64,000 nt of DNA from an uncultured Acidobacteriota bacterium (GCA_963710415.1 CAVQAH010000024.1:150234-214233), one strand, 5' to 3'. Shown: positions 23,356 to 55,946, counted from the stretch's first letter. Numbers and translations are program-made. Notes: generated by a model from the letters alone, not told the origin.

Positions 23356-24742
23356 GGCGGTGCTCTTTGACCTTGGAGAGCAGCATCTTGTAGGTGATCT
23401 GCAACAGCTCGGCGGCGCGGCCCTTGTTGTTATCGGCTTCCCGCAGGACCTGCTGGATCTTCAGACGCTCGGCCAGTGACATCGCGCGCCTGCCGACGTC
23501 GGTGAGACTGCCCGACATCTCGAACTCCGCCCACGGATCCGCTTCGGGCTCCGGCTGCGCATGAACGGCGTGGAACGTCAGGTTGAGATGACGCGGCAGA
23601 ATCGTGTCGCCTTCGGCGAGGATGACGGCGCGCTCGATGCTGTTCTGCAGCTCGCGGACGTTCCCCGGCCACCGGTATGACACGAGCTGCTCCACGGCGG
23701 CCGGCGACAGCACGATCGGTTTCTTCTTCATGTCGCGGCAGAAGCGGTCCGTGAAGTAACGAGCGAGGAGCGGGATGTCGCCCGGCCGCTCGCGCAGCGG
23801 CGGCACCGTAATCGGGAACACCGATAGCCTGAAGAACAGGTCCTCGCGAAAGCGCCGCGCGGCCACTTGTGCGCGCAGACCGCGATTGGTTGCGGCGACG
23901 AGCCGGACGTCGACCGTCACGAGCGCGGTGCCCCCGACACGCTCGAAGCGTTTTTCTTCGAGGGCGCGGAGAATTTTCGCCTGCAGCGAGAGGGGCAGAT
24001 CGCCGATCTCGTCGAGGAACAGCGTGCCGTGGTGAGCCATCTCGAACTTGCCAGGCTTCCTGGCCACGGCGCCGGTAAACGCGCCCTTTTCATGTCCGAA
24101 GAGCTCGGTCTCGAGCAGGGTTTCAGGGATGGCCGCGCAGTTGATCGCGACAAACGGCTCGTCTGCGCGCGGGCTCAGCGCGTGCAGCGAGCGCGCGAAC
24201 AACTCCTTACCGGTACCGCTTTCCCCTTCGAGGAGCACCGTCGTGTCGGTCGACGCGGCGCGCTGCAGCGAAGCGAACACCTTGCGCAGCGAGGGATCTT
24301 CGCCGACGAGCAACGGCGCGCCGCGCCGCACCGCGAGCTCTTCCTTCAGCAGGAGGTTTTCCGTCTGTATGCGGCGCTGCTCCAGGGCGCGAGCGACCAG
24401 CAGCAACAGATGGTCGGGATCGACAGGCTTCGCCAGAAAGTCGAGCGCGCCTTCCCTCATGGCGGCGACCGCATCCTCGATGCTGCCGTACGCCGTCATG
24501 ACGATCACCGGGATCTCCGAATCGAGTTCCTTGGTCGCGCGGAGGACGCCGAAGCCGTCACCTGCCGGGAGCCGCAGATCCGAAAGGACGAGCGCTGGCT
24601 GGTTGTGCTGAAGAAGTTGGACGGCTTCTTCCTGATCGCGCGCCTCGAGGACACCATGACCCTGGCGCTCCAGCGCGTGCCGAAGCATCGCGCGCAGCGA
24701 GTCCTTGTCCTCGACGATCAGGATTTGGGCGGGCGCAGCCAA
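23348..24742 (-). CDS. Sigma54-dependent response regulator (NtrC family: REC + AAA+ + Fis-type HTH)
   Basis: ORF 23348..24742 (464 aa), intact. Contains '[19 protein letters not shown]...DLRLPAGDG', '[53 protein letters not shown]' and a C-terminal HTH '[23 protein letters not shown]'. Confidence 0.9.
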
Positions 24743-35329: not shown

Positions 35330-36589
35330 TCACCCCGGGAGAGGGAGCGTCACGGTCAGCCTGGCCCCGCCACCCTCGGCATTGGCGGCCGCCACGCGTC
35401 CGTTGTGCGTCACGATGATCTTCTGGACGAGCGCGAGGCCGAGTCCCGTGCCGCGCGCTTTCGTGGTGAAGAAAGGCCTGAACATGCGTGCCTGCATGGC
35501 CTCCTGGATTCCCGCGCCGTTGTCGGTCACTGTCACGCGGAGCACCGGATGGCCAGGCTCGCGGCTGCCTTCGATGACGATTCTTGGCGTCACATTCGCT
35601 TCGAGGCACGCCTCCAGGGCGTTGCGACAGAGGTTGCTGAAGGCCTGCCGCAGCAGCACCTCGTCACCATCGACGTGGCCAAACTCGCCGAGAATGTCGA
35701 TTGTCCCTCCCCTGGATCTGACGTCGCCGCGCACGTCGTCGGCGGCACGCTCGACCACTGCCGACATGTCCACGGGGGTCAGCACCAACTCGGTGGGCTT
35801 GGCGAAGTTCAGGAAGTTGGTGACCACCTGACCGAGCGCCTCGGTCTCGTCGCGGATGCCGACCACGCACGCTCTGAAATCGTCGGGCAGACGATCGAGA
35901 TCCAGCAGCCGGCTATAGCCATGAATCGTCGCCAGACCATTGCGGAATTCGTGCGCGATGCCGGCGGTCAGCTCACCGAGCCGCGCCAGGCTGTCTTTCA
36001 GCCGCAATTGCTCCTCGAGCTCGACGACGTCGCTCAGGTCCGTGAACAGGCAGATGGCGCCGTGCGCCGCATCGTCGCCGGCGATGGGCGAGACGGTGAC
36101 GCCGAGGTGTGACGTCGTACCGTTGGCTTTCTTCATCTGCACCGCGCGGCGTACGATGGCGCGGCGGCTCGTCAGACATTCGTCCAGGACGTCGGCCAAC
36201 GCGCTGCTGTCCGTCAACATTTCACGAAAATGTCCGAGCGGCGCGTCCGTGGGCAGATGCAGTATCGATCGGCCGGCGGGGTTCAACGTGCGCACGGCGC
36301 CCTCGGCGCCGACCACCAGCAGGCCTGACGTCATGCTCGCGATGATTTCGCTGCTCAGGCGTTCTGATGCCTCGGCGCGCGCCGCCATCGCACGCTCCTC
36401 GATCCGGAGCTTGCGCACGGCTTCCTCCATGGCTGATGCCATGAAGGCCGTTTCCGCACCTTCGACACGACCTGATTGCGTAGCGGCGCGGGCGGCGGTA
36501 AAGAACTTCGCTGCCGCGAAGGCGAGCAACCCCACCAGCGCCGCGACGACGGCCGTCAAACCGAGGAAGAGGTAGGCTGACTGAGTCAT
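35330..36589 (-). CDS. Membrane sensor histidine kinase (TM + PAS-like + HisKA + HATPase_c, NtrB/AtoS-like)
   Basis: ORF 35330..36589 (419 aa), intact. The H-box is 'LGELTAGIAHEFRNGLATIHGYSRLL'. 'VTDNGAGI' and 'GTGLGLALVQKIIVTHNG' are present. Confidence 0.85.
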   Translation of the reverse strand: MTQSAYLFLGLTAVVAALVGLLAFAAAKFFTAARAATQSGRVEGAETAFMASAMEEAVRKLRIEERAMAARAEASERLSSEIIASMTSGLLVVGAEGAVRTLNPAGRSILHLPTDAPLGHFREMLTDSSALADVLDECLTSRRAIVRRAVQMKKANGTTSHLGVTVSPIAGDDAAHGAICLFTDLSDVVELEEQLRLKDSLARLGELTAGIAHEFRNGLATIHGYSRLLDLDRLPDDFRACVVGIRDETEALGQVVTNFLNFAKPTELVLTPVDMSAVVERAADDVRGDVRSRGGTIDILGEFGHVDGDEVLLRQAFSNLCRNALEACLEANVTPRIVIEGSREPGHPVLRVTVTDNGAGIQEAMQARMFRPFFTTKARGTGLGLALVQKIIVTHNGRVAAANAEGGGARLTVTLPLPG

Positions 36590-36723: not shown

Positions 36724-37500
36724 TCAGATCCTATAGAGCCCCACATACCACGCGACGATCTGATCGCCGAACAACGACGCGATGAGGGCGCCCAGCGCGA
36801 GGAAGGTACCGTAGGGGAGCGCGTATTTCAAACCGCCCTTCCTGATCGCCAGAACCAGCAGGCCGATCAGCGCGCCTGCGATCGACGAGAACACCAGCGT
36901 GACGATGGCCAGCTTCCAGCCGAGGAAGGCGCCAATCATCGCCAACATCTTCACGTCGCCGCCGCCCATGCCTTCCTGGCCGGAAAAGCGGTAGTACACC
37001 TCGCCGATGGCCCAGAGACTGCCGCCGCCAATCAAGGCTCCGAGTGCGGCCGCGATGATCCCGGGCGGCAGCAACAAGCTGAAGGCCAATCCGATGGCGA
37101 TCCCGGGGAGCGTGATGGCATTCGGCAGCAGATGATGCTCCAGGTCGATGGCGAAGAGCACGATCAGCATGCAGGCAAAGAACAGCCGCGGGACAAGCAG
37201 GATGTCCGGCCCGATGATCAGATAGTGCGCCAGGAATACGACCATCGTCACGACCTCGATGATCGGATACCGGATCGAGATTGGCGCGCGGCACGAGCGG
37301 CATCGGCCGCGCAGGAGCAGGTAGCTGATCACCGGAATGTTGTCGTACCAGCGCAGGGCGTAGCCGCACCCGGGGCACCGGGAACCGGGGCTGACGACCG
37401 ACTTGTGTTCTGGTAAGCGGTGGATGCAGACGTTGAGGAAACTGCCGACAGCGAGACCGAACAGGGCCAGCACTGTCACCACGAAAGTGTCGGACATCAT
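36724..37500 (-). CDS. pilD: Prepilin peptidase / N-methyltransferase (A24 family)
   Basis: ORF 36724..37500 (258 aa), intact. Contains 'FLNVCIHRLPEHKSVVSPGSRCPGCGYALRWYDNIPVISYLLLRGRCRSCRAPISIRYPIIE' and 'GGGDVKMLAMIGAFLG'. Confidence 0.9.
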   Translation of the reverse strand: MMSDTFVVTVLALFGLAVGSFLNVCIHRLPEHKSVVSPGSRCPGCGYALRWYDNIPVISYLLLRGRCRSCRAPISIRYPIIEVVTMVVFLAHYLIIGPDILLVPRLFFACMLIVLFAIDLEHHLLPNAITLPGIAIGLAFSLLLPPGIIAAALGALIGGGSLWAIGEVYYRFSGQEGMGGGDVKMLAMIGAFLGWKLAIVTLVFSSIAGALIGLLVLAIRKGGLKYALPYGTFLALGALIASLFGDQIVAWYVGLYRI

Positions 37501-38396
37501 GAAGGAGGACGGACCGGATTCTCAGGCATCGGTTGCAGCTCTGACGACGCCGACACGCTGACCTTCCCCGTCGTCGGGTCGATCACGTAGGGCGTGCGGG
37601 TGGAATCCACGGGAACTCCTGGCAGCGCGCGCTGCGAGATCAACCAGCGCCACGAGTACTGCCCGCCCGCCGGCGGTGGGTTGTTCCGCGCGACCCGCTC
37701 CAGCTCGTCGATCACGTCGAGCGCGTCGAGTTGCTGAAGACGGCGAGTGGCGAGCCGGCGCAGCCAGTCCTGATCCGACGCAAGAATCTGACGCCACACC
37801 AGTCGCGCCGACGCGCGATCACCACCGGCGTTGAGCATCACCGCCGCAATCGGCTCCAGCCAGTTGGGCGCACCCGGCTGATCTGCCGCGCGCTGGAACC
37901 ACGTCGCGGCGGCCTTGTAGTCCTTCAAGTGCCAGTAATGCACGAAGGCGACGTCATGGTAGTACTGCCACTTGGTCGGCTGGGCCTTCAGGCCCTTTTG
38001 CAGAAGCGCTTGGGCCTGGTCGGGACGTCCTGGTCCGCCGGGAACCGGCTCGCTGAGAAAGATGGCGCCGAACCGGTAGGCAATCGTGAAGTACGGATCG
38101 AGCGTGGTCGCCAGATCGAGCAGCGGATAGAGCAGATCGTAGTTGCGCGGTCGTGTCTTGATGAGCCGCTCGCCGCCGTAGACCTGAAGCGCTCGGATCC
38201 AGTACACGTCGGACGCCAGCGCATCGAACTCCATCGCCATCCGATCCATGGCCGCGCCGGACTGCACATAAAGGACGCGGCTGGTATCGGCTATCTGACG
38301 AGGGAACTGCCGGTCGCGGAAGACCTGAACGGCGACCGCGGCGGCAAAGACGACGACGGCGGCCACGGCCACGATTGGGTTGCCGGGCCGGCTCAC
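37497..38396 (-). CDS. Membrane-anchored TPR-like protein of unknown function (positional analog of Myxococcus PilG)
   Basis: This is the 3' part of ORF 37497..38789. The likely GTG start overlaps the upstream stop (GTGA). An N-terminal TM segment 'PIVAVAAVVVFAAAVAV' is followed by helical repeats. Confidence 0.5.
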   Translation of the reverse strand: MSRPGNPIVAVAAVVVFAAAVAVQVFRDRQFPRQIADTSRVLYVQSGAAMDRMAMEFDALASDVYWIRALQVYGGERLIKTRPRNYDLLYPLLDLATTLDPYFTIAYRFGAIFLSEPVPGGPGRPDQAQALLQKGLKAQPTKWQYYHDVAFVHYWHLKDYKAAATWFQRAADQPGAPNWLEPIAAVMLNAGGDRASARLVWRQILASDQDWLRRLATRRLQQLDALDVIDELERVARNNPPPAGGQYSWRWLISQRALPGVPVDSTRTPYVIDPTTGKVSVSASSELQPMPENPVRPPS

Positions 38397-39199
38397 TTGA
38401 AATCCCTTCTCGAGAAGATGAACATCGCCAGGAGGAGCACGGCGGTCACGTAGAGCACGCCGTACACCGCCGTCGATGCGAGATACGCGGGAGCCACCGG
38501 CAGGCCATGGACGACCTCGGTCTTGACGTCGAAGGCCGAGAGATCGGGCAGCAAATAGTAGATGCCGCGGGCCAGCCAGATCGCGGGCTTCGATTCGACA
38601 ATCCGATCGAAGTTCTTCAAATCGGTGTTGAAGTGGCCGGCGATGTAGATGCCGAAGGTCAGGGCCGCGGAGAGCAAAGGCGTTGAGAAGGTGGAGAAGA
38701 ACACCGCGACCGCGGTGACGATCGCCAGCTGCATGAAGATCAGGAAGATGGCCTTGAGCAGCGCGGGATCGATGCCCGGTGCGTCCCAACCGGCTTTGAA
38801 CTCGGCCGACTCGGTCACCGTCATGTAGGTCAGCACCAGGTAGAGCGCCGCGGTCATCACGGCGACGTTGACGGCCAGCGTGAGCACGAGGCCGAAGTAC
38901 TTGCCGATGACGAACTGCGTGCGGCTGATGGGCTTCGCGAGGATGGCGTAGATGCTCCGCCGCTCCACCTCTTTCGACACCAGACCGATGCCGATGAAAA
39001 TCGCGATGAACAATCCGAACACGGACGTCGCGGCAAGCCCGAGATCCTTGATGATCTTGACGTCCTGCCCCGCCGTCAGCTGGCCCAGCAGGTAGCTGGA
39101 CGAGATCAGGAGCACCGCGAAGAGCACGAGGTTGTAGGGCACGCGATCGCGGACCGACTCCCGGAACACGTTGATCGCGATCCCGCTAATGGTCCGCAC
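38393..39199 (-). CDS. ABC-2 family transporter permease
   Basis: ORF 38393..39391 has 'VFRESVRDRVPYNLVLFAVLLISSSYLLGQ...VSKEVERRSIYAILAKPISRTQFVIGKYFG'. The likely GTG start is near 39199, overlapping the end of the ATPase gene. Confidence 0.75.
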   Translation of the reverse strand: MRTISGIAINVFRESVRDRVPYNLVLFAVLLISSSYLLGQLTAGQDVKIIKDLGLAATSVFGLFIAIFIGIGLVSKEVERRSIYAILAKPISRTQFVIGKYFGLVLTLAVNVAVMTAALYLVLTYMTVTESAEFKAGWDAPGIDPALLKAIFLIFMQLAIVTAVAVFFSTFSTPLLSAALTFGIYIAGHFNTDLKNFDRIVESKPAIWLARGIYYLLPDLSAFDVKTEVVHGLPVAPAYLASTAVYGVLYVTAVLLLAMFIFSRRDFK

Positions 39200-40169
39200 G
39201 GACGGTCTCTCCTGACTGCGGGGCGCGCGCCCCGGCCCCCATCTCCTGGACCCGGCGGACGAAGAAGTCCTCGAGCGTGTCACGAACGGGATTGATCGAC
39301 ACAAGGCGTGCGCCGGTCGCGACGAGATCCGCCAGCAGCCTTTCCGGCGGGTAGGCAGCGGGCACTTCGAGCGCGTACCGGCCCGGCGCAATCTCCGTCG
39401 AGCGACGGGTGACCGCGCTGATCCGCGCGTGCACGTCCGCCTTCAACCCATCGACGACAATCTCCCAGCCGCGAATGTCGAACGCGAGGATCTCCGTCAG
39501 ACGCCCGGCTGCTGCCAACCGCCCGCCCGCCACGACGGCGACACGGCTGCACAGCGCTTCGGCATCGGACAGGATGTGCGAGCTGAAGAACACCGTACGA
39601 CCCTGATCGCGAAGCTCGAGGATCAACGTACGAATGTCCCGCCGGCCGAGAGGATCCAGGCCCGACATCGGCTCGTCGAGAAAAATCACCTCGGGATCGT
39701 TGATGAGGGCCTGCGCCACGCCGACGCGCTGCACCATGCCTTTTGAGAACTTGCGCAGCTGCAACCGGCGCTCCGCCCCGATGCCGACGCGATCCAGCAG
39801 CGCCGATACCCGCGTTTTCTGATCGGCACGACTGAAGCCAAAGAGTTGCGCGAAGTAGGTGAGCAGCTCCTCCGCCGTGAGGTAGTCGTAAAAGTAGGGA
39901 TTCTCCGGCAGGTAACCGATGCGCTTGCGGACCGAAACGTCGCCAACAGGCTTGCCGAGAATGTCGGCACGGCCGGCGCTGGGAAAAATCAGCTGCATCA
40001 GCAGCTTCAGCGTCGTCGTCTTCCCGGCGCCGTTGGGGCCAAGGAAACCGAACACTTCCCCCGGTTCAACCTGAAGAGACAGGCGATCCAGCGCACGGTA
40101 CGGCCGCTTCCGCCAGAAACCGACCGCGTAGTCCTTTGTCAGCTCCTCGATCTGAATCGCTGGAGGCAT
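39186..40169 (-). CDS. ABC transporter ATP-binding protein
   Basis: ORF 39186..40367, from the Met at 40169. Contains 'MPPAIQIEELTKDY...FGFLGPNGAGKTTTLKLLM', 'FSKGMVQRVGVAQAL' and 'VIFLDEPMSGLDP'. Confidence 0.85.
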   Translation of the reverse strand: MPPAIQIEELTKDYAVGFWRKRPYRALDRLSLQVEPGEVFGFLGPNGAGKTTTLKLLMQLIFPSAGRADILGKPVGDVSVRKRIGYLPENPYFYDYLTAEELLTYFAQLFGFSRADQKTRVSALLDRVGIGAERRLQLRKFSKGMVQRVGVAQALINDPEVIFLDEPMSGLDPLGRRDIRTLILELRDQGRTVFFSSHILSDAEALCSRVAVVAGGRLAAAGRLTEILAFDIRGWEIVVDGLKADVHARISAVTRRSTEIAPGRYALEVPAAYPPERLLADLVATGARLVSINPVRDTLEDFFVRRVQEMGAGARAPQSGETVRADH

Positions 40170-40173
40170 GCAG

Positions 40174-41377
40174 TTACTTGGCTCTCTTGAGCTCCAGATC
40201 GATGATGGCGTCAAGGTATTGCGGCTGCACCGCCTGCGGCAGCTTGCGTCCGGCGATGAAGAAGGTCGGCGTTGAGTGGACGTCGAGCAGCTTGCCCAGG
40301 CCTGCGTCCGTCTTGACCTCTTCGAGCGCGCGCGCATATTGCGCATCGAAATCCTGGATTCCGGCAACGTCGTGCGCCGCCTGCTTGACCTGCTCGGGCG
40401 TGAGCGCCGGCGGACCGAAGTTGGCGAAGATCCAGTCTTCCATCTTCTTCGACGTCCCTTTCGCTCTGGCCATCACCACCGCTGCGGCCGCCTCGCACGA
40501 CGCGTAATGGTTGCCCCCGGGAACGTTGACGTTGCACTCGGGCTCCAGCGGGTAATGCTTGACGACGTAACGGACCTGCCCGGCAGCCTCGTACTTGCTC
40601 AGCACGCCCTTGTACAAATCGTGGGTGATCTTGCAAGCGGGGCACTGATAGTCGTTGAACTTCACCACCAGCACCTTGGCCCCGTTGTCGGGGATCGGCA
40701 CGTCGACCTTGGGCTGCATGTCCCACCACTCGGCAAGCTTCGCCCGCTCGGCATCGGTGACAGGCGGGAGCTGGACCTCCTGGGTCTGCGCAGCCGGCTT
40801 GCGCGAGACCCTCGCGAGGGAACGCGGCGACAACGCCGACGGCCGCCGCCGCGAAGAGCACGGCCGTCAGCAACGCCACCGGCGTGGCAACCATCGTCCG
40901 CACATCGCGGAGCGCACGAGAAGGCAGCTTGGTCATGGGTAACGCAGTCGCTCCACCGGAGATCACGAAAATCGCGACCACCGATACGTAGGTGATCGCA
41001 CACAGAACGCAGAAGACTTTCAGAACGAAGTACGAGGCCCAACCGAGATACAGCACGAACGCAAGCGCCACCGTCGAGAGCGCGAAGATGTACGCAGGGG
41101 CGCTGTCGTGGGCCGCTGACGACGGACGGCGTGTCATCGCGCTCATGACGAGCACGAACGCGAAGTACAGGAGTCCGAGCGGCGCGACTGGAACCCCCAG
41201 AAAGCTACCGTACGGGCTCAGATACGCTTCCGTACAGCTCACTGTCGAACTGACGTCGCAGAAGCTCGTGTACGCGGGATCGGTGAGCAGGCGATAGTGG
41301 ACGTAGGTTGACGTCGCCGCAGCCCCGAGACCCAGGGCCGAGAACGCCAACAACAGCCGGCGCATCGAGGGTTTCAT
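40174..41377 (-). CDS. VKOR (vitamin K epoxide reductase-like) fused to a DsbA-like thioredoxin domain, one frame break
   Basis: ORF 40211..41377 carries the N-terminal multi-TM VKOR with 'SFCDVSSTVSCTEAYLSPYG' and 'FCVLCAITY'. ORF 40174..40833 carries DsbA-like 'VLVVKFNDYQCPACKITH...LDVHSTPTFFIAGRKL'. The break is near 40810. Confidence 0.8.
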
Positions 41378-41489
41378 GTTGTTGATGTGGAATCACGCAG
41401 AGTCCGGCTTCAGCCGGACATCTACTTTGTACCGCGTATCCGTCTGACCGTCAAGGTGTTAGGGGCGTCGCCGCCCGGTTCGAGCGGCG

Positions 41490-42026
41490 TTACCGGGCGG
41501 TCGGCAGCTTCAGCTCGCGCCCGTTCGAAGGGGCGCCCTTCTCGGGCATCTTCCCGGTGAACGTCTCCATGCCCTCGAAGATCACACGGTCGACGTTCGA
41601 GCCGAAATACCGAATCCCGGTCGACCCCGGGTTGGTGGGGTCGGCAGTCACCTGATAACCGGAAGCGGGCTTGTTGCCGGTGCACGCCTTCACGTCGGTC
41701 TCGACCTCGGTGCCGGCCATCTGCACGAAGTACCCATTCTTCCGCACTTGCTCGGCGTAGGTCAGGTCGGGACTCAGGAAAGCCGTGCCAGACCCGGGCA
41801 CCGGTGTTCCCAGCTCCACCAACGTCGGCGCGAAATTCTGCCGACCGCACGTCTGCATGTAAGCGAACTGTGCCTGGTTGATCGCCTCGAGCGCGGCAAT
41901 GGCGGATGCCTCGGCGCCCAATATCCGCGCGTTTCGATACGACGCGACCGAGATCGACAGCAGGACCGCGATGACCGCCATCACGATCAACAGCTCGACC
42001 AGCGTGAAACCGCGAATACCTCGCAC
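41490..42026 (-). CDS. Type IV pilin paralog 1
   Basis: ORF 41490..42026 (178 aa) with 'IRGFTLVELLIVMAVIAVLLSISVASYRNARILGAEASAIAALEAINQAQFAY'. Two Cys residues are present. Confidence 0.8.
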   Translation of the reverse strand: MRGIRGFTLVELLIVMAVIAVLLSISVASYRNARILGAEASAIAALEAINQAQFAYMQTCGRQNFAPTLVELGTPVPGSGTAFLSPDLTYAEQVRKNGYFVQMAGTEVETDVKACTGNKPASGYQVTADPTNPGSTGIRYFGSNVDRVIFEGMETFTGKMPEKGAPSNGRELKLPTAR

Positions 42027-42039
42027 GAATCCAGCTTAC

Positions 42040-42217
42040 ACGTGTTTACTGCGGACGTGTGCAGTGCCACGTGCTGCCGTGGTCCGTGGTCGCGTGCGTC
42101 CGTGTCTGCCGTGCGATCTGCAGCACGCGCGAACATAACCGTGACAGCAGTATCGATGCGAGACACGTAGCACGTGACGAAGCAGCACGGACTACGGAGG
42201 ACGTCCGCACGTGCACG
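42040..42217. repeat. ACGTGC-type heptamer array forming a long imperfect inverted repeat
   Basis: The arms are 'CTGCGGACGTGTGCAGTGCCACGTGCTGCCGTGGTCCGTGG...' and '...CACGGACTACGGAGGACGTCCGCACGTGCACG'. Same unit family as 61801-61967 and 63955-64000. Confidence 0.7.
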
Positions 42218-42764
42218 TTACTGCAGCACGGTCCCTCCGCCTGACGGATCCATCTCCCCCTCGGTTGGCGGAGATGCCGTCCGGCCTGAAGAACAGCACG
42301 TACTTGTTCGTCGTGGCGAACGCCCTGTGGCCGGACCGCCCAATCGACAGCGGAGCGGCGGTCAGGTAATAGCCCATGCGCGTCTGCGATCCGTGGCAGT
42401 CGAATGGCCCGAGCACGGCGCTGCCGGCGTCGAGCGTGATTGTGTAGCCGCTCTTCGTCGACGGGTCCACCGCGAGGTCGGGCGAGATGAATCCGACGGA
42501 TCCGCCGGGGCATGCGGTGGCGAGCACCGACAACTGCACCGCGTATCCTCCGGTCGTGGCCGACGCCGCAAACGCGGCTTCGGCGCTGTTCACCGCGCGC
42601 AGCGTTCCGATGGCGGAGGACTCGTTGCCCGCCATGCGTGCCCGCAGCAGCATCGGCAGCGCCATGGCCGAGACGATTCCGATGATCGCCACCGCTGCCA
42701 GAAGTTCTATCAGTGAAAATCCGCGCGCGCCGTTCGAACGCGCTCGCGCAGCACGCCCCGCCAT
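42192..42764 (-). CDS. Type IV pilin paralog 2 (3' end probably mis-framed; likely true stop near 42218)
   Basis: ORF 42192..42764 has 'ARGFSLIELLAAVAIIGIVSAMALPMLLRARMAGNESSAIGTLRAVNSAEAAF'. An alternative frame ends '...SGGGTVLQ*', parallel to '...ETGGTPLQ*' in the pilA alternative frame. Confidence 0.8.
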   Translation of the reverse strand: MAGRAARARSNGARGFSLIELLAAVAIIGIVSAMALPMLLRARMAGNESSAIGTLRAVNSAEAAFAASATTGGYAVQLSVLATACPGGSVGFISPDLAVDPSTKSGYTITLDAGSAVLGPFDCHGSQTRMGYYLTAAPLSIGRSGHRAFATTNKYVLFFRPDGISANRGGDGSVRRRDRAAVTCTCGRPP

Positions 42765-42857
42765 ACATTCCTCCGTTCAGGGCGGCCTTCGGTCGGGTCT
42801 CGTCCCCAGGCGAACCTTCCGCCTTGTCGAGGCCCCCGGCGTGAGCTGTCGAAGGCC

Positions 42858-42895
42858 AAAAAAAAAGGATGCCCGTGCAGCCGGGCATCCTTTTT
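42858..42895 (-). terminator. Strong intrinsic terminator after pilA
   Basis: The minus strand reads 'AAAAAGGATGCCCG-gctgca-CGGGCATCC-TTTTTTTTT'. It has a 9-bp perfect stem, a 6-nt loop and a 9-T tract. Confidence 0.85.
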
Positions 42896-42901
42896 CGGGT
42901 C

Positions 42902-43438
42902 TTACGAGGTGCTTACTGGAGCGGCGTGCCGCCGGTCTCCGGCAGGAGCGCCACCGGTCGCGTCCGCCACGAAGTAGAGCGTGCCGTGCGCTGCAGTCGA
43001 GAACCCGCGAACGCCCGTGTTGCCGACGCCCACCGGAACTGCCGTCGCGTAGTAACCCGTGCGGCTCACCGTCGTGCCGCTGCAATCCGTCGTCACGTCC
43101 GCAGGCGTTCCAACCGTGCTGTCCGCCAGCGCGATCGTGTAGCCGCTCTTGATGGACGGGTCGGCCGCGAGGTCAGGCGAAATGAACCCCTGCGACGAGC
43201 CCGGGCAGGGCGTTGACAGCACCGCCAGCAGAATCGCATATCCGCCGCCACCCGCCGACGCTGAATACGCCGCTTCCGCGCTGTTGACCGCGCGAAGCGA
43301 ACCGATAGCCGACGACTCGTTGCCCGACATGCGGGCGCGCAGCAGACCCGGAACGGCGATCGCCGCGATGATGCCGATGATCGCCACGACGATCAGCAGC
43401 TCAATAAGCGTGAAACCCTTCTGGTTACGAACCTTCAT
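42902..43438 (-). CDS. pilA: Major type IV pilin (own sigma54 promoter and terminator)
   Basis: ORF 42902..43438 (178 aa) with 'QKGFTLIELLIVVAIIGIIAAIAVPGLLRARMSGNESSAIGSLRAVNSAEAAY'. Two Cys residues are present. An alternative-frame C-terminus '...ETGGTPLQ*' would put the stop at about 42913. Confidence 0.85.
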   Translation of the reverse strand: MKVRNQKGFTLIELLIVVAIIGIIAAIAVPGLLRARMSGNESSAIGSLRAVNSAEAAYSASAGGGGYAILLAVLSTPCPGSSQGFISPDLAADPSIKSGYTIALADSTVGTPADVTTDCSGTTVSRTGYYATAVPVGVGNTGVRGFSTAAHGTLYFVADATGGAPAGDRRHAAPVSTS

Positions 43439-43529: not shown

Positions 43530-43544
43530 GCAACGGAAGTGCCA
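43530..43544 (-). promoter_or_regulatory. Sigma54 (-24/-12) promoter of pilA
   Basis: The minus strand reads 'TGGCACttccgTTGCt', a perfect consensus, about 95 nt upstream of the pilA ATG. pilR (a sigma54 activator) is adjacent. Confidence 0.8.
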
Positions 43545-43835: not shown

Positions 43836-45267
43836 TTACTTCAGATTGTATTTCTTCATGTAATACCGGAACGATCGGAAGCTCATGCCGAGCAGTTCGG
43901 CGGCCTTGACCTTGACACCGCCGGCGCGCCGTAGGGCTTCGGCGATGTACTCCCGCTCGATGTGCTGGACGTGCTGTTCGAGGTCGATCCCGCCTTCGGG
44001 GAAGCCGTCCCCTGGCTGGACGTTCACCGGGCAGTTGGATGCGGCGCTGTTTCGCGGACCTGCTCGGGCAGGCTGTCCGCGAGGATCGTCGGCGTGCGCT
44101 CGAGCGCCACCGCCCGTTCGATGGCGTTTTCGAGCTCGCGGATATTCCCCGGCCACGGGTAGGCCTTCAGGCAGGCCAGCGCGTCGCCCGAGATGCCGGT
44201 AATCCCCTTCCCCATCTGCTCGGCGAAGCGGGTCACGAAGTGCTCGGCCAGGAACGGGATGTCTTCGACCCGCTCGCGCAGGGCTGGCAAGACGAATGGG
44301 GATGACGTTGATCCGGTAGAAGAGGTCCTCGCGGAACTCGCCCGCGGCCACCATCTTCGACAAATCCCGGTTGGTGGCGGCAATGACCCGGATGTCCGCT
44401 TCGACCTCCTCGGTCCCGCCGAGCCGCCTGAAGCGCCGCTCCTGCAGCACACGCAGACAGCTTGACCTGGACGAGCGGGCTCATCTCGCCGATCTCGTCG
44501 AGGAAGATCGTGCCCTTGTCGGCGACTTCGATCAGTCCCTTCTTGTTGGTGTCCGCGCCCGTGAACGCGCCGCGCATATGTCCGAACAGTTCCGAGTCGA
44601 GCAGGGTCTCGGACAGTGCCCCGCAGTTGACCGCCACGAACGGCTTGTCTTTTCGGAGCGAGTGGAAGTGGATGGCCCGCGCGACGAGCTCCTTGCCGGT
44701 GCCCGACTCGCCGGTGATCAGCACCGTGCTGCTGGTCGGCGCAATCGTCTCGATCAGCTGGAAGACCGCGAGCATCGGCTCGCTGCGCCCGATGATGTTC
44801 GAGAACTGGTGCGCGGTCTGCAGCGCGCGCTTCAGGAGCACGTTCTCCCGCTGCAGGTGGCGGCGCTCCATTTCCTTTCGCACCCGCAGCCGGACTTCGT
44901 TGGCGGCGCCAGGCGACTTGTGCACGTAATCGGCCGCGCCGAGGCGCAGCGCTTCGACCGCGGTGTCCGTCGACGCGAACGCCGTCATCACGATGCTGAT
45001 GATCTCCGGGTCGATCTTCTTGGCCTCCCTGAGGACGTCCACGCCGCTCATCTGCGGCATCCGGATATCGGTGATCAGGATGTCGACGCGTTCGCGCTTG
45101 AGCAGGTCGATCGCGACCGCCCCATTCTCGGCAAGCAGCACTTCATAGCCATCGCGGCGCAGCACGATCGTCAGCAGCTCCCGCATCGACCGCTCGTCGT
45201 CGACGACGAGCACGCGGGGAGGAGTCTCCGACGCCGAACGATTCGGTGTTCGCACCTCGGTGGCCAT
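43836..45267 (-). CDS. pilR: Sigma54-dependent response regulator PilR, three frame breaks
   Basis: ORF 44233..45267 carries REC plus '[53 protein letters not shown]'. It continues in ORFs 43836..44450 and 44024..44452 ('[14 protein letters not shown]'). The C-terminal HTH is '[25 protein letters not shown]'. Breaks are near 44455, 44290 and 44030. Confidence 0.85.
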
Positions 45268-45270
45268 AGA

Positions 45271-46949
45271 TCAGTTCGTCAGCGCCGCGTGGGATTCGGC
45301 CGGTTGCGAGGCGAGCGGAAGCTTCACGGTCACGCTCGTGCCCTGATTCGGTTGCGACGTGACCTGAAGCTCGCCGCCGTAGTCGCTGACAATCCGGTGG
45401 ACGATCGAAAGTCCGAGCCCGGTTCCGCGTGAGAACCCGCCGCGAAATGGCTGCAGGATGCCCTCGAGCTGATCGGACGGGATGCCGACGCCCTCGTCGC
45501 GCGACCACGATCATCGCCTCGCCGGGCGCGTCCCCGTCGCGGTCTACTGCCGTGACGGCCAGTGTGAGCCGGCCGCCGCCGGGCATCGCGCGAAGCCCGT
45601 TGGTCGCGAGGTTCCACACAATCTGCCTCATTTGCCCTTCGTCGGCCGTGCACCAGACCGGCTCGTCGGGCACCTCCAGCTTCATGTCGTGCGTCTCGTG
45701 CAGCTCGGGGCTGTTCTGCAGCAGCGTTGCCGTGTCCGTCACCGCCTTGCGCAGGTCGAGCCTCGCGGCAGACTGACGCTGCGGCCGCGCATAGGCCAGG
45801 AAGCTCTTGATCGTCTCGTTCAGCCGCTCGGACTCGCGCATGACGATGTCCATCAGCTGTGCCTGTTCGTCGGTCAGCGGCAGTTCCTGGCGCAGGATCT
45901 GAATCGAACCGGACATCGACGCCAGCGGGTTTCGAATCTCGTGTGCGATCCCGGCCGCCATCTCGCCCACCGCGGCGAGGCGCTGCTGAATCCGTGCCTC
46001 GCGCTCGTGTTTCCGCGCGTCGGTGACGTCCTGGAACGTGATCACGAACCCGCTCTCGCCGCGGGGCGTGATCAGAATCGCGGTGCTGATGCCGAGCTCG
46101 ATCTGCCGGCCGTCCGCCTGCCGGTAGTCGGTACTCGACGCGAGGTAACGGCGGCCGCTGCTCCCTCGGCCCGAACAAGGCCGAACACCCGGGCGGCAGC
46201 TGGAGAATTTCGAACGCGCCGCGGCCGACGGCGTAGCGCGCCGGAATGCCGGTGATCGTCTCAGCGGCACGGTTGAACGTGAGCACGCGGCCGGCGAGAT
46301 CGGTGGTCAACAGCCCGCTCGCGAGACTGTTGATGGCGTATTCGCTGAACGCTTGCAGGTCGGCAATCTGGTTGGACGCCTCCTCGAGCTCCTGCCCGGC
46401 GCGGCGCAGACCTTCGGCCAGGTATCCGCTCAGGGAAGCGACGGCAATGAAGCCGAAGACGTTCAAGCCGACCGTATAGAGCGCCACGCGCTCGGGCGGC
46501 AGGATCTCGGCGCCGGTGACGACCGACATCGGCGGCGGTCCCGCGTATTGCGCCCATACGAGCCCGCTGTAGATCAGCGAGCTCAACACGCCGATCATCA
46601 GCCCGCCGCGCAGCGACTGGATAGTACTCGCGGCGATGATCGGCAGCATGTACAGCGTCGAGAAGGAGCTCACGACACCGCCGGTCATGTGCACGACGGC
46701 CGACACGATCAGGACGTCGCAGGCGAGCTGGACGTCGACGATCCAGCGATGCTGTTCGGCCTGCTTCAGCAGCAGCGAATACACCGCCGTCAGCGTGTAG
46801 GTCAGGCCGATGAGGAAAAAGAACGGATCGACCGGCAGCGCGCCCGGCGAATGGATTTGGATCACAATCGCCGAGCCGAGCAGGACCGTTACGGCTGCCG
46901 CGCGGCAGCCAATCAGCCAGAGAAGTCTTCGACGAAGCTCGACCGCCAC
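45271..46949 (-). CDS. pilS: Sensor histidine kinase PilS (multi-TM + PAS + HisKA + HATPase), two frame breaks
   Basis: ORF 45330..46949 carries the TM region and the start of the PAS domain. ORF 45143..46270 has the H-box 'AAGIAHEIRNPLASMSGSIQIL'. The last ~75 codons ('RDEGVGIPSDQLEGILQPFRGGFSRGTGLGLSIVHRIV...ALTN*') are in a third frame, with the stop at about 45271. Breaks are near 46150 and 45500. Confidence 0.85.
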
Positions 46950-46950: not shown

Positions 46951-48165
46951 TCACCCTGTCAACTTGTTGATCAGGTCGAAGATCGGCATATACATCGCGA
47001 TGACGATGCCGCCGACCACAACTCCCAGGAACGCGATCATGATCGGCTCGAGCAGCGTCAGCATGCCGGCCACGGCGGAGTCCACTTCCTCTTCATAGAA
47101 ATCGGCAATCTTCGACAGCATCGCGTCGAGCGCGCCGGTCGTTTCGCCGACGTTGATCATTTGGACGACCATCGACGGAAAGACGTTGGTTTCTTTGAGG
47201 GGACCCGAAATGGTCTCGCCGCGCTCGATGCCGGAGCGAGTCAGCAGTATGGCATCCTCGATGATGGCGTTGCCGGACGTCCGGGCCGTGATGTCCAGCC
47301 CGTCCAGGATGGGAACGCCCGAGGCCAGCAGGGTCGACAACGTGCGGCAGAATCGGGCCACAGAGACCTTGCGGATGATGTTGCCGAGGACAGGGGTCTT
47401 GAGCATGATCCGGTCGATCATGTGCCGCCCGCCATCGGTCGCGTAGTAGCGGTTCACCATGTAACCGGCGGCGCCGACGATGATGAGCATCAGCCAGCCC
47501 CAGGCGACGACGATGTCGCTGGCGGCCATGACGATGCGGGTGGGGAGCGGCAGCTGGGCACCAAGACCTTGGAACAGGGAGGCGAAGGTCGGGATGACCT
47601 TCCACAGGATGGCGCCGACGACCAGCGTCGCAATGACGATGACGGCGACCGGGTAGATCATCGCCGACTTCACGTCACCCTTCAGCTTGACGTTCTTCTC
47701 GATGTAGGTCGCCAGCCGCTTCAGGATCGTGTCCAGGATACCGCCGGCCTCACCTGCCGCGATCATGTTCGAGTAGAGCGCGTCGAACGTCTTCGGATGG
47801 CGCTTCATGCTGTCGGCGAGTGCCGCGCCCGCCTCGACGTCTTCCCGGACCTTGAGGATGACCGCCGAGAAATGCTTGTTCGGCTCCTGCTTGCCGAGGA
47901 TGTCCAGACACTGGACGAGCGGCAGGCCGGCGTCGATCATGACCGAGAACTGTCGCGTGAAGATCGCCAGGTTCTTGGCAGGGACGGATTTGCCCTTGGG
48001 CGGTTTGGCCTTTGCCTCCGCCCTGGCTTTCGACGGATCGATCTTCGTGACGACGATCTGCTCGCGCCTGAGCAGTGCCATCGCGCCGTCCATCGTGTCC
48101 GCGACACGCTCGCCGGTGACCGATTGCCCCGTCCGTGTCCGCCCCGAGAAGGCAAAAGTAGGCAT
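46951..48165 (-). CDS. pilC: Type IV pilus platform protein PilC
   Basis: ORF 46951..48165 (404 aa), intact. Contains 'LAIFTRQFSVMIDAGLPLVQCLDIL' and a repeated GspF domain. Confidence 0.9.
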   Translation of the reverse strand: MPTFAFSGRTRTGQSVTGERVADTMDGAMALLRREQIVVTKIDPSKARAEAKAKPPKGKSVPAKNLAIFTRQFSVMIDAGLPLVQCLDILGKQEPNKHFSAVILKVREDVEAGAALADSMKRHPKTFDALYSNMIAAGEAGGILDTILKRLATYIEKNVKLKGDVKSAMIYPVAVIVIATLVVGAILWKVIPTFASLFQGLGAQLPLPTRIVMAASDIVVAWGWLMLIIVGAAGYMVNRYYATDGGRHMIDRIMLKTPVLGNIIRKVSVARFCRTLSTLLASGVPILDGLDITARTSGNAIIEDAILLTRSGIERGETISGPLKETNVFPSMVVQMINVGETTGALDAMLSKIADFYEEEVDSAVAGMLTLLEPIMIAFLGVVVGGIVIAMYMPIFDLINKLTG

Positions 48166-48196: not shown

Positions 48197-49315
48197 CTAA
48201 CGGCGCGGCTGCGCTCCGACCCGATTCATCCCTGCTCCGGCAACCACTCCCGTGCCCCGTTCGATCATCTGCTGGAGTTCGTCTTTGATCGACGACGCCC
48301 CGAGCGCGGCATCCAGCGTGATGAACCGCCGTTGATACAGCGTCGCCAGATTCTGGTTCATCGTCTGCATCCCCAGCTTTTCCTGCCCCGCCTGCATCGT
48401 CGAATAGATCTGATGGACTTTGTCGTCGCGAATCAGGTTACGGATGGCGGCAGTGGGGATCATGATCTCGAGCGCGACGACACGCCCCTGTCCATCGGCC
48501 CTCGGCAGCAGCGTCTGACACACGATGCCTTCGAGCACCAGCGACAGCTGCGTTCTGATCTGGCCCTGCTGGTGTGAGGGGAAGACGTCGATGATTCGGT
48601 TGATCGTCTGCGCCGCGGAGTTGGTGTGCAGCGTCGCGAACGTGAGGTGCCCCGTTTCGGCGATGCGCAGCGCGTTCTCGATCGTCTCGAGATCGCGCAA
48701 CTCGCCGATGAGGACGATGTCCGGGTCCTCGCGCAGCGCCGAGCGCAGCGCGGACGCAAACCCGTGGGTGTCGGCGTGTACTTCTCTCTGGTTGACGATG
48801 CACCCCTTGTGCGGGTGGATGTACTCGATCGGATCCTCGATGGTGAGGATGTGCTCGCGGCGCTCCGTATTGATCTTGTCGATCATGGCGGCGAGCGTCG
48901 TCGACTTGCCGCTGCCGGTCGGGCCGGTGATCAGCACCAGGCCGCGCGGTCGATCGGCCAGCGAGCCGATGACTTCGGGAAGACCGAGCTCGTGAAAGCT
49001 CTTGATCTGTTCTGGAATGACTCGATAGACGGCCGCCACCGCCCCGCGCTGGTTGAAGACGTTGCAGCGGAAGCGGGCGATGCCCCGGATGCCGAAGGAA
49101 AAGTCCAGTTCGAGCGTCTCCTCGAAACGCTTCTTCTGGGCATCGGTGAGGACGCTGTAGGCCAGCGTCTTCGTCTCGGCTGGACCGAGTGGCGGCAGGT
49201 CGAGCAACTGCAGCTTACCGTGCAGCCGGATCTGGGGCGGCGTCTGCGTCGTCAGGTGCAGGTCGGAGCCGCCGAATTCGACCAGTGTTTTCAGGAGTTC
49301 GGGTAGCGTTGCCAT
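48197..49315 (-). CDS. pilT: Type IV pilus retraction ATPase PilT
   Basis: ORF 48197..49363, from the Met at 49315. Contains 'GLVLITGPTGSGKSTTLAAMID', 'ILTIEDPIEY', 'DPDIVLIGELRDLETI' and 'AETGHLTFATLHTNSA'. Confidence 0.9.
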   Translation of the reverse strand: MATLPELLKTLVEFGGSDLHLTTQTPPQIRLHGKLQLLDLPPLGPAETKTLAYSVLTDAQKKRFEETLELDFSFGIRGIARFRCNVFNQRGAVAAVYRVIPEQIKSFHELGLPEVIGSLADRPRGLVLITGPTGSGKSTTLAAMIDKINTERREHILTIEDPIEYIHPHKGCIVNQREVHADTHGFASALRSALREDPDIVLIGELRDLETIENALRIAETGHLTFATLHTNSAAQTINRIIDVFPSHQQGQIRTQLSLVLEGIVCQTLLPRADGQGRVVALEIMIPTAAIRNLIRDDKVHQIYSTMQAGQEKLGMQTMNQNLATLYQRRFITLDAALGASSIKDELQQMIERGTGVVAGAGMNRVGAQPRR

Positions 49316-49319
49316 AGCG

Positions 49320-51128
<1,809 letters not shown>

Positions 51129-51256
51129 CGTTGTCTCTTGATGCGAATGTGCGCGGCGCAGACGCCGACGCCGTTCCATCTGAACGCACGTCGACGTACG
51201 TGTTCCGACGGCGAGGGGCGTCTTGCTGCTTGGGGAGGTCAATAGTTTGGGGGTGC

Positions 51257-51271
51257 TGACAAATATTGTCA
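51257..51271. promoter_or_regulatory. Palindrome TGACA-N5-TGTCA upstream of pilB
   Basis: 'cTGACAaatatTGTCAa' lies about 130 nt upstream of the pilB ATG. Same motif and flanks as 43653..43667. Confidence 0.45.
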
Positions 51272-51368
51272 AGGGCTGAGCTAATGGAATCGGGAGGGGT
51301 GATGGATTGATTGCAGAATCGTAAAGAACCATGTCGGGTGGAAGTTGGCAGTTGGGATTTGACAAGGA

Positions 51369-52352
51369 TCAGAAGATGACCCGCGCCCCGATCCCCCACC
51401 CTCGATCGCCAGCTTCCGAGCCCAGCGTGGCCTGCCCGTCGACGAGCAAGGAACCGAACACCGCAAAGCTGCCGCCCACGCTGATGACCGGTCGCGCGCC
51501 TGCGGACTGGTCGCTCACGGTGTTGAAGCGAAACCCTGATCGGACATACGCGCGAGGAAAGATTCGGGCTTCGGCGCCGACGGCGATGTTTCGTTCGTCG
51601 CCGACGGTCCCAGGCACGCGATCGAGATCGAAGTCCGCCGCCGCCACAAGGACACCTTGCGCCAGCGTCACGGCGACTCCCGCTCGAAACTGCCGCTTCA
51701 ATTCGATGTTCCCGCCCGGCCCCTCGAACTCGTTTTCGACGACGTTGCGCACCGTGAGCCCAGCGCGAAGGTGGCCGCTCGTGGCGATCACGCCGATGTC
51801 CGCATCGAACTTGTTCGAGGCGGACCCAATCAGGTCGTTGGCCTCGTCCAGCAGATCGTCACGATCGCCGGCCGGAGCGAGACCGGTCGCGGCGATGCCG
51901 CGCACGAGTTTGAGTGTCGCGCCGACCGCGATGTGATCGGTCAGCGACTGGACCAGTGTCCCCCCGGTGTGGTGGGTAATGAGCGTCTGAAGCTGGACGA
52001 CGTCGTCGTTGCCGGGCACTTCGCTCAGCGTGGTCATTCGCAGCCGGTAGTACGAGGCGCCAAGAGCCGGCAGCGCAAAGGCGATCGCGGACCCCGACCG
52101 CGATCCGGCCCGAACGGGGTCATCCGGCTCCGCCTTCGCGGTGCTGTAATCGAGCAACAGGCTGAAATAGGCCCCCATTGCAAGCCCAGCAGGGTTCCAG
52201 TATGTTGCCGAGGCGTCGTCGGCGACGGCCACGAACGCGCCCCCCATGCCCTGGGCTCGGGTACCGAGGACCTCGAAGTTCTGAGCAGTCACGGGACTCG
52301 GAAGCGCCAAAACCGACGCTAGTAGAACCCCGACCCACGCCATCCGTCTCAT
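51369..52352 (-). CDS. Outer-membrane beta-barrel protein (PorV/FadL-like N-terminal motif), function unknown
   Basis: ORF 51369..52385 has a signal peptide 'VGVLLASVLALPSPVTAQ'. 'GTRAQGMGGAFVAVADDASATYWNPAGLA' follows. The pattern of alternating strands ends in 'GIGARVIF'. Confidence 0.6.
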   Translation of the reverse strand: MRRMAWVGVLLASVLALPSPVTAQNFEVLGTRAQGMGGAFVAVADDASATYWNPAGLAMGAYFSLLLDYSTAKAEPDDPVRAGSRSGSAIAFALPALGASYYRLRMTTLSEVPGNDDVVQLQTLITHHTGGTLVQSLTDHIAVGATLKLVRGIAATGLAPAGDRDDLLDEANDLIGSASNKFDADIGVIATSGHLRAGLTVRNVVENEFEGPGGNIELKRQFRAGVAVTLAQGVLVAAADFDLDRVPGTVGDERNIAVGAEARIFPRAYVRSGFRFNTVSDQSAGARPVISVGGSFAVFGSLLVDGQATLGSEAGDRGWGIGARVIF

Positions 52353-52560
52353 GGACAGTGAGCTTAGCGTACAGGCCGAGCACATCCCTGTTCGGAATCC
52401 GCCCCGGCATCCGTCCCTAAACCATAGGCAACGCAGGGACTTCTCCGGCCCAGGAAACGAAACTTCCGGAGTCGATCAGTCGTATTATTCCGGTACAATT
52501 GGCCAGAATTGTTCGGGCGCCTATGCGCTCACCACAGGTCAGACTCACTCCACGATTACC

Positions 52561-53302: not shown

Positions 53303-54645
53303 GTCGGAACAAGAAGATCCTGATCGGCGTCGGCGTCGTCGTCCTCCTTGCGCGCGATCGTCTTCGCGAACCTCAAGTTCAAGCGGACCGAAGGTGTGAC
53401 CGTCAACACCGAAACGATCAAGAAGCAGAACCTCGAGGCGCTGGTCTCGGCCTCGGGCAAGATCCAGCCGACCCGGTCGGTCAACATCAGCGCCGATACC
53501 ATGGGCCGAGTGACCAACCTGGCGGTCAACGAAGGCGATCGGGTCAAGCGCGATCAGTTCCTGCTGCAGATCGATCCGCGCAACCTGCGAACGGCGGTGC
53601 AGCGGACCGAAGCCTCGCTGGCGGCGGCGACGATCGCAGATGGAACAACTGCGCCTCTCGCTCGAAAGCGCACAGGTCGCGGTCAAGCAGGCGGAAGAGA
53701 ACTTGAAGCGCCAGCAGGATCTCTGGAAGGGCGGCCTGACGACGCGCGAGTTGCTCGAGCGGACCGAGCACGATCTGAAGATCCGGCAGGCGGACCTGCG
53801 GTCGCAGGAACAGCAGGTCAAGACACAAGAGCTGCGGATGCAGCAGGAGAGCGCGACGGCGGAAAGCGCGCGCTTCGACCTGAGCAAGGTCCGCATCGAA
53901 TCGCCCATCGACGGCATCGTCACCCGGCGCAACATCGAGGAAGGCGAAACCGTCGTCATCGGCACGATGAACAACGCCGGCACGGTGTTGCTTACCATCG
54001 CCGACATGTCAGTGATTCAGGCCGAAGTCGACGTGGACGAGACCGATATTCCGAGCATTCAGATCGGCCAGCGGGCGAAGATCGCGATCGATGCGTTGCC
54101 GGGGAAAACATTCACCGGCAAGGTCACCGAGATCGGCAACAGCCCGATTCAGGCAGCCGGCCAGTCGACGGCACAGAGCACGCAGGCCACGAACTTCAAA
54201 GTCGTCGTCACGCTGGATTCAGAGATCGCGGAGGTGCGGCCCGGCTTCACGTGCACCGCGGAAATCACGACCGCCGTCCGCGAAAACGTTGTCGCCGTGC
54301 CGATCCAGGCGCTCGCCGTGCGCGAACTCATCTCACGACGAGAAGGGGCAGATCGTCCGTCCCAAGAAGGAGGATCGCCCGCGGCGTCCCGGCATCACGA
54401 GCGCGTCTGCCGAGGAACTACCGAAAGGACAGACGCGAAAGGAAGAGGAAGGCGTTTTCGTCGCCCGCGACACGACCGTCGAGTTCGTTCCGGTGAAGAC
54501 CGGGATCGCCGGCGACAAGTACTTTGAAGTGCTCGCCGGGTTGAAGGAAGGCGACAAGGTCGTTGTCGGGCCCTTCAACTCCGTGCGCAATCTCGCCGAC
54601 GGCGACTGCAATCAAGGTGGCGGCGGCCACACCGACACGGCGGCC

Positions 54646-54649
<4 letters not shown>
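53299..54649 (+). CDS. Efflux periplasmic adaptor (HlyD/MacA-like), about four frame breaks
   Basis: Pieces lie in ORFs 53299.., 53348.. ('VSASGKIQPTRSVNISADTMGRVTNLAVNEGDRVKRDQFLLQIDP'), 53640.. (coiled-coil hairpin, 'IESPIDGIVTRRNIEEGETV') and 54091.. ('VEFVPVKTGIAGDKYFEVLAGLKEGDKVVV'). The likely C-terminus 'DAIKVAAATPTRRP*' overlaps the next ATG (ATGA). Confidence 0.75.
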
Positions 54650-55873
<1,224 letters not shown>

Positions 55874-55946
55874 GCACCGGGCCGCCGACACAACGCCGCC
55901 GCGTAGCGGCTCGCTTCGGGCGGGCCTTTTCGCCGAGATCCTGACC

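Follow-up and report, generated by a model that had tools for sequence, protein, structure and literature searches.

In the type IV pilus cluster of this DNA, an ABC transporter is encoded after the pilins and before the prepilin peptidase; what is it, and what does the oxidoreductase gene beside it contribute? The DNA is a 64 kb stretch from an uncultured Acidobacteriota bacterium, searched at its full length and called the window below, in which all genes of the pil region lie on the (-) strand. Three pilin genes are followed by a gene for a fusion of VKOR with a DsbA-like thioredoxin, then by genes for an ABC ATPase, an ABC-2 permease and a membrane-anchored helical-repeat protein, and finally by pilD. 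In Myxococcus xanthus, PilG, PilH and PilI have been known since 1998 as essential for pili, with a role that is still undefined, and to our knowledge models of the type IV pilus machine usually omit them. A preliminary description of the locus, made from the DNA alone, had taken the three ABC-related genes for a PilGHI equivalent in a lineage apparently different from Myxococcus. Our comparisons identify the trio as true homologues of M. xanthus PilH (ATPase), PilI (permease) and PilG (accessory protein). The lineage is also a different one: the window's RpoA is 94% identical to that of a Vicinamibacterales metagenome-assembled genome (MAG), and because of this identity we assign the source to the Vicinamibacterales (Acidobacteriota).

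Against the proteins of M. xanthus AM003, the reference used for pairwise comparisons, the window's PilH aligns at 43% identity over 307 aa (E 7e-81), its PilI at 31% over 264 aa, i.e., over the entire protein (E 5e-41), and its PilG at 28% over 244 aa (BLASTP E 3e-14). For PilG, an hhalign comparison of 28 window-type with 33 Myxococcota sequences gave a probability of 99.6% and an E value of 1.9e-24 over 227 columns, and a database search with the Myxococcus gene returned the DK1622 protein, whose name in NCBI and UniRef is "putative efflux ABC transporter accessory factor PilG". The likeness exceeds that expected of ABC proteins in general. When the search was reversed, M. xanthus PilH scored 252 bits against this ATPase and 79 bits (28% identity) against the other ABC ATPase in the window, and M. 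xanthus PilI and PilG found no second match there; unrelated ABC ATPases in the Myxococcota loci described next reach 26-27% identity at most. In an HMMER search of 1.84 billion representative proteins (50%-identity clusters) with a combined PilG-family profile, 6286 matches were retrieved at E<=1e-3, 3734 at E<=1e-10 and 894 at E<=1e-30, and the best 150 form a continuum from the window type to the Myxococcus type.

Gene position agrees with these alignments. Using M. xanthus PilA (a sequence identical to PDB 8tj2 over 208 residues), we fetched 79 Myxococcota pilA loci with 10-kb flanks and searched them with the window's proteins by tblastn. The matches sit directly downstream of pilA in the expected pilG-pilH-pilI-pilD order, the helical-repeat protein matching at the pilG position (E 1e-7 to 1e-19), the ATPase at the pilH position (37-49% identity), the permease at the pilI position (28-43%) and PilD at the pilD position (about 36-50%).

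The association with pilin genes is conserved well beyond the window. Four relatives with called genes were available, namely L001, the closest, with about 85-89% DNA identity to the window, and L081, L082 and L083; their PilG proteins are 85, 64, 66 and 64% identical to the window's. All four have pilin genes, an intact gene with VKOR and Thioredoxin_4 domains, the ATPase (ABC_tran), the permease (ABC2_membrane_2), the PilG-like gene and pilD. A JGI metagenome scan anchored on the PilG-like gene added 80 loci, which at 47-68% identity represent the window's own clade only. Counting each neighbour over the loci with sufficient flanking DNA, the permease gene lies directly upstream of the PilG-like gene in 60/60 and pilD directly downstream in 54/55, while an ATPase (34/34), a DsbA domain (24/24), a VKOR domain (19/20) and a pilin (17/18) are found nearby.

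We also inspected the contigs of four distant PilG-family members, 25-34% identical to the window protein, in which the adjacent ATPase is 44-56% and the adjacent permease 29-43% identical to the window's. These read pilT-pilC-pilS-pilR-pilA-H-I-G-kinase-pilMNOPQ (L164), pilS-pilR, two pilins, a TMEM260-like/TPR protein, G-H-I, GT2 and pilD (L165), pilin, H-I-G, PMT_2, LolA and pilC-pilB-pilM-pilN (L166), and pilin-G-H-I-kinase-regulator-minor pilins (L167). Among the loci inspected, a pilin gene is thus the universal neighbour of the module and pilD a frequent one. In one group of Myxococcota MAGs (L023, L038, L039, L044, L061, L069, L075 and L080) the module is split: pilA is followed by pilG-pilI, while pilD-pilH lie upstream of it and on the other strand, and the PilI of these MAGs is 38-43% identical to the window's, compared with about 31% for Myxococcus PilI. 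The order of the trio therefore varies within the Myxococcota as well, so the H-I-G order seen here, which the preliminary description had correctly noted as departing from the G-H-I of Myxococcus, is no obstacle to the homology and does not define the system. The linkage that it had expected recurs in the called-gene relatives, the metagenome loci and the distant members alike, and these comparisons indicate a widespread module tied to pilin genes in several deeply divergent lineages rather than a Myxococcus oddity.

The window holds a type IVa pilus gene set, i.e., pilB, pilT, pilC, pilD, pilins, minor pilins and PilY1 (Table 1). Domain scans (Pfam and NCBIfam, run on the window's proteins) recovered the M. 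xanthus-like backbone that had been proposed, pilB-pilT-pilC-pilS-pilR-pilA through pilD to a histidine kinase, and the coordinates given beforehand for pilD, the ATPase, the permease and the helical-repeat protein were exact to the base.

Table 1. Genes of the pilus cluster in the window, listed in the direction of transcription
Gene or product	Position	Strand	Domain matches and remarks
pilB, assembly ATPase	49320-51365	-	T2SSE + MshEN; 55% identical to Myxococcus PilB
pilT, retraction ATPase	48197-49363	-	T2SSE
pilC, platform protein	46951-48165	-	T2SSF x2
pilS sensor kinase, broken	45143-46949	-	6TM_PilS + PAS only in open reading frame 45330-46949
pilR sigma-54 response regulator, broken	43836-45267	-	Response_reg + truncated Sigma54_activat match
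pilin 1, candidate major pilin, Cys78/Cys119	42902-43438	-	N_methyl, weak NF041775 match
pilin 2, Cys pair	42192-42764	-	Pfam scan
pilin 3, Cys pair	41490-42026	-	Pfam scan
VKOR-thioredoxin/DsbA fusion gene, interrupted	40174-41377	-	VKOR 1.2e-25 (PF07884), Thioredoxin_4 6.8e-15, two frames
PilH homologue, 327 aa, ABC-2-type (DrrA/NosF/GldA-like) ATPase	39186-40169	-	ABC_tran
PilI homologue, ABC-2 permease, 268 aa	38393-39199	-	ABC2_membrane_2, 1.5e-9
PilG homologue, 299 aa, one N-terminal hydrophobic helix	37497-38396	-	weak TPR matches
pilD prepilin peptidase	36724-37500	-	A24_N_bact + Peptidase_A24
second histidine kinase, pilS2 position	35330-36589	-	PAS + HisKA + HATPase_c

The tight packing of co-directional genes that had been described from the sequence was found at each junction of the block: the DsbA stop and the PilH start are separated by 4 nt, the PilH and PilI genes overlap by 14 nt, and the PilI stop meets the PilG start in a GTGA overlap and the PilG stop the pilD start in an ATGA overlap. 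The kinase 3' of pilD is kept in the relatives too, and in the window it is followed, in transcription order, by a minor pilin gene and a PilY1-like gene. Two starts in the table can be refined, in that the true start of pilB is probably the internal MAVRIGELL..., and a 372-aa form of PilT starting MATLPELL has an exact match in the protein collection. Upstream of the first pilin gene, by about 90 nt, lies TGGCACTTCCGTTGC (43530-43544, -), a perfect match to the sigma-54 consensus TGGCAC-N5-TTGC and the sole zero-mismatch match in the 64 kb. It is probably a sigma-54 promoter driving the pilin cassette, and its position fits control by the adjacent PilS/PilR; in M. xanthus, pilA is under PilS/PilR control. 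The hairpin at 41402-41419, considered as an intrinsic terminator that would separate the pilins from the VKOR gene, was rejected since it has no T tract, so that it marks no clear operon boundary.

The preliminary description had treated the VKOR-DsbA gene as an insertion. It does lie between the pilins and the trio, where a Myxococcus cluster has nothing of the kind, but its presence is not incidental. Neither a VKOR nor a DsbA gene was found in the cluster in any of the 79 Myxococcota loci or the 4 distant loci, whereas in the window's clade the two domains are nearly invariant neighbours of the trio, and since the Myxococcota loci have neither, the gene is a clade-specific, fixed addition to the block. 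The 400-aa protein obtained when the reading frame is restored has a loop cysteine pair (C40/C48), a CXXC motif in the membrane (C123-V-L-C126), the thioredoxin motif C245-P-A-C248 and a further pair, C281/C294. The relatives of its VKOR part are solved VKORs, among them the VKOR-thioredoxin fusion of Synechococcus (PDB relatives 6wv9, 3kp9 and 4nv6), and those of its thioredoxin part are ScsC/BdbD/DsbA-like proteins.

A cysteine pair is present in 11/11 pilins of the four relatives and in all three pilins of the window, and in the first pilin the cysteines stand at about 78 and 117-119, positions conserved in the relatives; one pilin of a relative has a third cysteine, and the tail of window pilin 2 contains two more. 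In other bacteria, type IV pilins are known to depend on DsbA. The simplest reading of these sequences is that VKOR-DsbA would be a dedicated disulfide-forming enzyme for the pilins of this clade. Our full-text literature search found no description of a VKOR-thioredoxin fusion placed in a pilus cluster.

As to what the trio does, the M. xanthus genes (PilG-PilH-PilI: Wu et al. 1998, cited in PMC3724824) provide the functional background: deletion of pilG, pilH or pilI leaves no pili, no S motility and no exopolysaccharide, and in a pilB suppressor test the mutants resemble a pilA mutant, unlike mutants of the core machine (PMC3724824, PMC5544727). We consider it quite probable that the region studied here is that part of a type IVa pilus cluster which lies next to the pilins, and that in it the PilHIG trio, whose genes are translationally coupled with one another and with pilD, acts on the pilins together with a VKOR-DsbA disulfide relay. 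In this scheme a PilH dimer and a PilI dimer with short loops would form a machine of ABC-2 fold, and PilG would serve it as a membrane-anchored TPR adaptor with a surface for binding proteins. By analogy with Myxococcus, where losing any one of the three genes abolishes piliation, this machine would work on the pool of pilins, within or at the inner membrane, before they are assembled, and would stand outside the PilB/PilC/PilMNOPQ motor. In VKOR-DsbA, electrons would travel from the thioredoxin domain with its CPAC motif to the CVLC/quinone site in the VKOR domain, and the enzyme would thereby form the single disulfide possible in every pilin of the clade, so that pilins, VKOR-DsbA, PilH-PilI-PilG and PilD would make up one cassette for pilin production and maturation. 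A broader proposal, possible but held with more doubt than confidence, is that PilGHI may be an ancient pilin-linked ABC-2 machine of a large subclass of type IVa pili across phyla, one doing mechanical work on pilins in the membrane (insertion, extraction, or hand-over to PilD and the assembly platform) rather than small-molecule transport, to which the Vicinamibacterales-like clade added the disulfide enzyme and so obtained a self-contained maturation cassette.

Several observations weigh against this picture. PilD adjacency is absent in L164, L166 and L167, so the idea of PilGHI working with PilD rests on part of the family only. Both the stoichiometry of the complex and the target of the disulfide relay are points that we infer. 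The AlphaFold model of PilG (pLDDT, i.e., predicted local distance difference test, 89) consists of a transmembrane helix (residues 7-30), helical repeats (58-238) and, at the C-terminus, a small beta region, and in a structure search it retrieved only generic TPR superhelices with TM-scores of 0.3-0.4, none of which gives a clue to function; nor does the positive-inside rule orient the protein, since in both subfamilies the helix is flanked by roughly equal net charges. Lastly, pilS, pilR and the VKOR-DsbA gene are frameshifted, and should these lesions be genuine, expression of the cluster may be lost. Separately, we had considered whether the C-terminus of PilG is a pseudopilin-like domain, prompted by a conserved L..G.L...P.DP.GG motif with some likeness to the head domain of the pseudopilin GspG. 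This was not supported: T2SSG was matched by 0/61 PilG members at E<=1 in Pfam, pseudopilins were absent from PDB profile searches with either the whole PilG family or the C-terminal 82 residues, and a separate model of the PilG C-terminus (pLDDT 78) gave nothing at E<5 in Foldseek.

The frameshifts could mean that the cluster is decaying, with real lesions in pilS, pilR, VKOR-DsbA and the minor-pilin/PilY1 genes and a non-functional pilus. Relative to L001, roughly 20 kb of the window contain about 14 single-base indels that are not compensated, and both regulators are struck several times, pilS near 46131 and 45503 and pilR near 44457, 44291 and 44042/44032, so that pilR runs in the open reading frame 44233-45267 and then in other frames to 43836. 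Further uncompensated insertions lie at 33769, 33252, 32615, 31970, 31864 and 30596. The VKOR-DsbA gene had initially been described as a plain fusion. Both domains are indeed there, but the 1204-nt interval is not divisible by 3 and does not form one open reading frame: the VKOR domain lies in the frame of 40211-41377, and the thioredoxin CPAC domain (Thioredoxin_4/DsbA) in the separate frame of 40174-40833, whereas in L001 and L081-L083 the two are fused in one intact polypeptide of 400-420 aa. Compared with L001, one extra base near 40796 splits the gene, and deletion of any one base within 40780-40839 restores a 400-aa open reading frame, equal in length to the intact L001 fusion. Nearly all of the indels are +1 insertions, several of them duplicating a neighbouring base, in-frame stops and larger deletions are absent, and the protein outside the shifts is highly conserved; because of this pattern, the single-base insertions suggest assembly or sequencing errors rather than decay. 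All affected genes are intact in the four relatives (L001 PilS has 569 aa with HisKA and HATPase_c, and L001 PilR has 448 aa), and a similar split affects a gene for a translation-factor-type GTPase at a distance from the locus (57711-58373 / 58370-59569). Decay is thus an unlikely explanation. The ATPase, permease, PilG-like and pilD genes have no indels, and this difference is not significant (0 in the 3.7 kb from PilH to PilD, with about 2.6 expected). Indels near 42269 and 42219/42213 also set the C-terminal tail of pilin 2 (...VTCTCGRPP, 42192-42280) apart from the L001 orthologue, and the two extra cysteines of this tail may be an artefact.

Two further explanations concern what the trio transports. 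Exporters of glycans and of teichoic acids are known among the ABC-2 permease/ATPase pairs with this fold, and PilGHI could accordingly be a Wzm/Wzt-like exporter or flippase of a lipid-linked sugar or glycan, serving pilin glycosylation or a pilus-associated polysaccharide. Some loci do place genes for glycosyltransferases, of GT-C or other type, next to the module: PMT_2 directly after PilG in L166 (8952-10298), TMEM260_N/TPR (3670-5721) and GT2 (10563-11522) beside it in L165, and, in L081 (1-2877), GT87 and YfhO ahead of the pilin genes. The blocks of the window, L001, L082, L083, L164, L167 and Myxococcus, as far as tested, have no glycosyltransferase, Pfam detects no Wzt-type carbohydrate-binding extension in the ATPase, and the full loss of pili in Myxococcus mutants would be unexplained unless glycosylation were essential there, all of which makes glycan export rather unlikely, if a little less so than decay. 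That the trio is instead a generic ABC-2 exporter of the drug, copper-enzyme maturation or gliding type, beside pil genes by chance, is highly improbable. It would agree with the automatic annotation of the permease as a multi-copper enzyme maturation subunit and with DrrA, GldA and NosF as the best named ATPase families (NosF is also the best solved relative with a single nucleotide-binding domain, at 166 bits). All NCBIfam matches, however, are far below their cutoffs (GldA 188 vs 402.6, DrrA 206 vs 312), the scans found no NosD, NosL or GldG partner in the locus, the permease has no sequence relative in the PDB at E<=1, and a specific partner homologous to Myxococcus PilG as well as a pilin linkage conserved across very divergent lineages would both be left to coincidence.

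The locus can be set beside the closest known systems. As in M. xanthus, PilG is a protein of about 300 aa with an N-terminal hydrophobic helix and helical repeats, and the trio stands between pilA and pilD in a pilB-pilT-pilC-pilS-pilR-pilA...pilD-pilS2 backbone. The window differs in its H-I-G order, in the VKOR-DsbA gene between the pilins and the trio, in having three pilin genes, and in belonging to the phylum Acidobacteriota with a PilG identity of about 28%; the fixed VKOR-DsbA gene and the gene order are variant features of the known PilGHI system. NosF/NosY and GldA/GldF likewise pair an ABC2_membrane_2 permease with a DrrA/NosF/GldA-like ATPase and an accessory protein, and NosDFY and GldA/GldF resemble the trio further in being ABC machines for building or running an envelope apparatus and not for nutrient import. 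In contrast to these, the proteins of the window score far below the equivalog cutoffs, the permease has no PDB match, and a TPR protein takes the place of the NosD beta-helix or of GldG as accessory protein. The oxidoreductase, with its frame restored, resembles bacterial VKOR-thioredoxin fusions (Synechococcus VKOR, 3kp9/4nv6) and actinobacterial VKOR + DsbA in its loop cysteine pair and membrane CXXC and in the extra transmembrane helix and CXXC thioredoxin-fold domain that come next; it differs from them by a thioredoxin of Thioredoxin_4/DsbA (ScsC/BdbD-like) type and by its conserved place within a type IV pilus cluster.

Sharma et al. 2018 obtained pilGHI matches only within deltaproteobacterial clusters, and our literature search returned nothing specific on PilGHI outside the Deltaproteobacteria. 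The sequence evidence thus assigns the trio to the PilGHI family in a phylum for which that search found no prior description. As the trio again follows pilin genes in a phylum unrelated to Myxococcus and in several other deep lineages, and as the family comprises hundreds of clusters at 50% identity, its function would be general and pilin-centred. The finding extends the known PilGHI system and does not reveal its mechanism. It supplies comparative material for PilGHI function, namely conserved PilG residues, variable gene order, and co-occurring PilD, VKOR-DsbA and glycosyltransferases, and the pilus-cluster VKOR-DsbA would neatly exemplify an enzyme dedicated to the oxidative folding of pilins. 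The PilGHI genes escape present-day annotation: the permease is automatically named a subunit of an [quoted passage not shown], and in public records such proteins pass under "hypothetical", "TPR repeat protein" or "copper-enzyme maturation permease".

Some further features of the window and its relatives were recorded. No rRNA, tRNA or other Rfam family was matched across the window. A TraF_2 gene (outer-membrane beta-barrel-like; 51369-52385, -) lies directly upstream of pilB. A second sigma-54 response regulator, this one intact (23348-24742, -; Response_reg + Sigma54_activat + AAA_lid_14), may be the equivalent of pilR2, but the minor-pilin genes lie between it and the pilS2-like kinase. 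Beside the pil cluster, 53348-57179 (+) carries MacB-type ABC permease genes (MacB_PCD, FtsX) and a biotin-lipoyl-like adaptor gene; the open reading frame 54091-55605 has no FtsX part and may be another frameshift. At 4547-17000 (-) there is a glycosyltransferase cluster (GT2, GT1/GT4) with a methyltransferase, possibly a polysaccharide export locus, in which the open reading frame 6545-8086 combines an ABC ATPase domain with a GT2 domain and may be a frameshift artefact. In L082, a two-gene cassette (2350-3233; a faint Rv2175c_C match and a RES domain) sits between pilR and the pilins and is presumably similar to a toxin-antitoxin pair.

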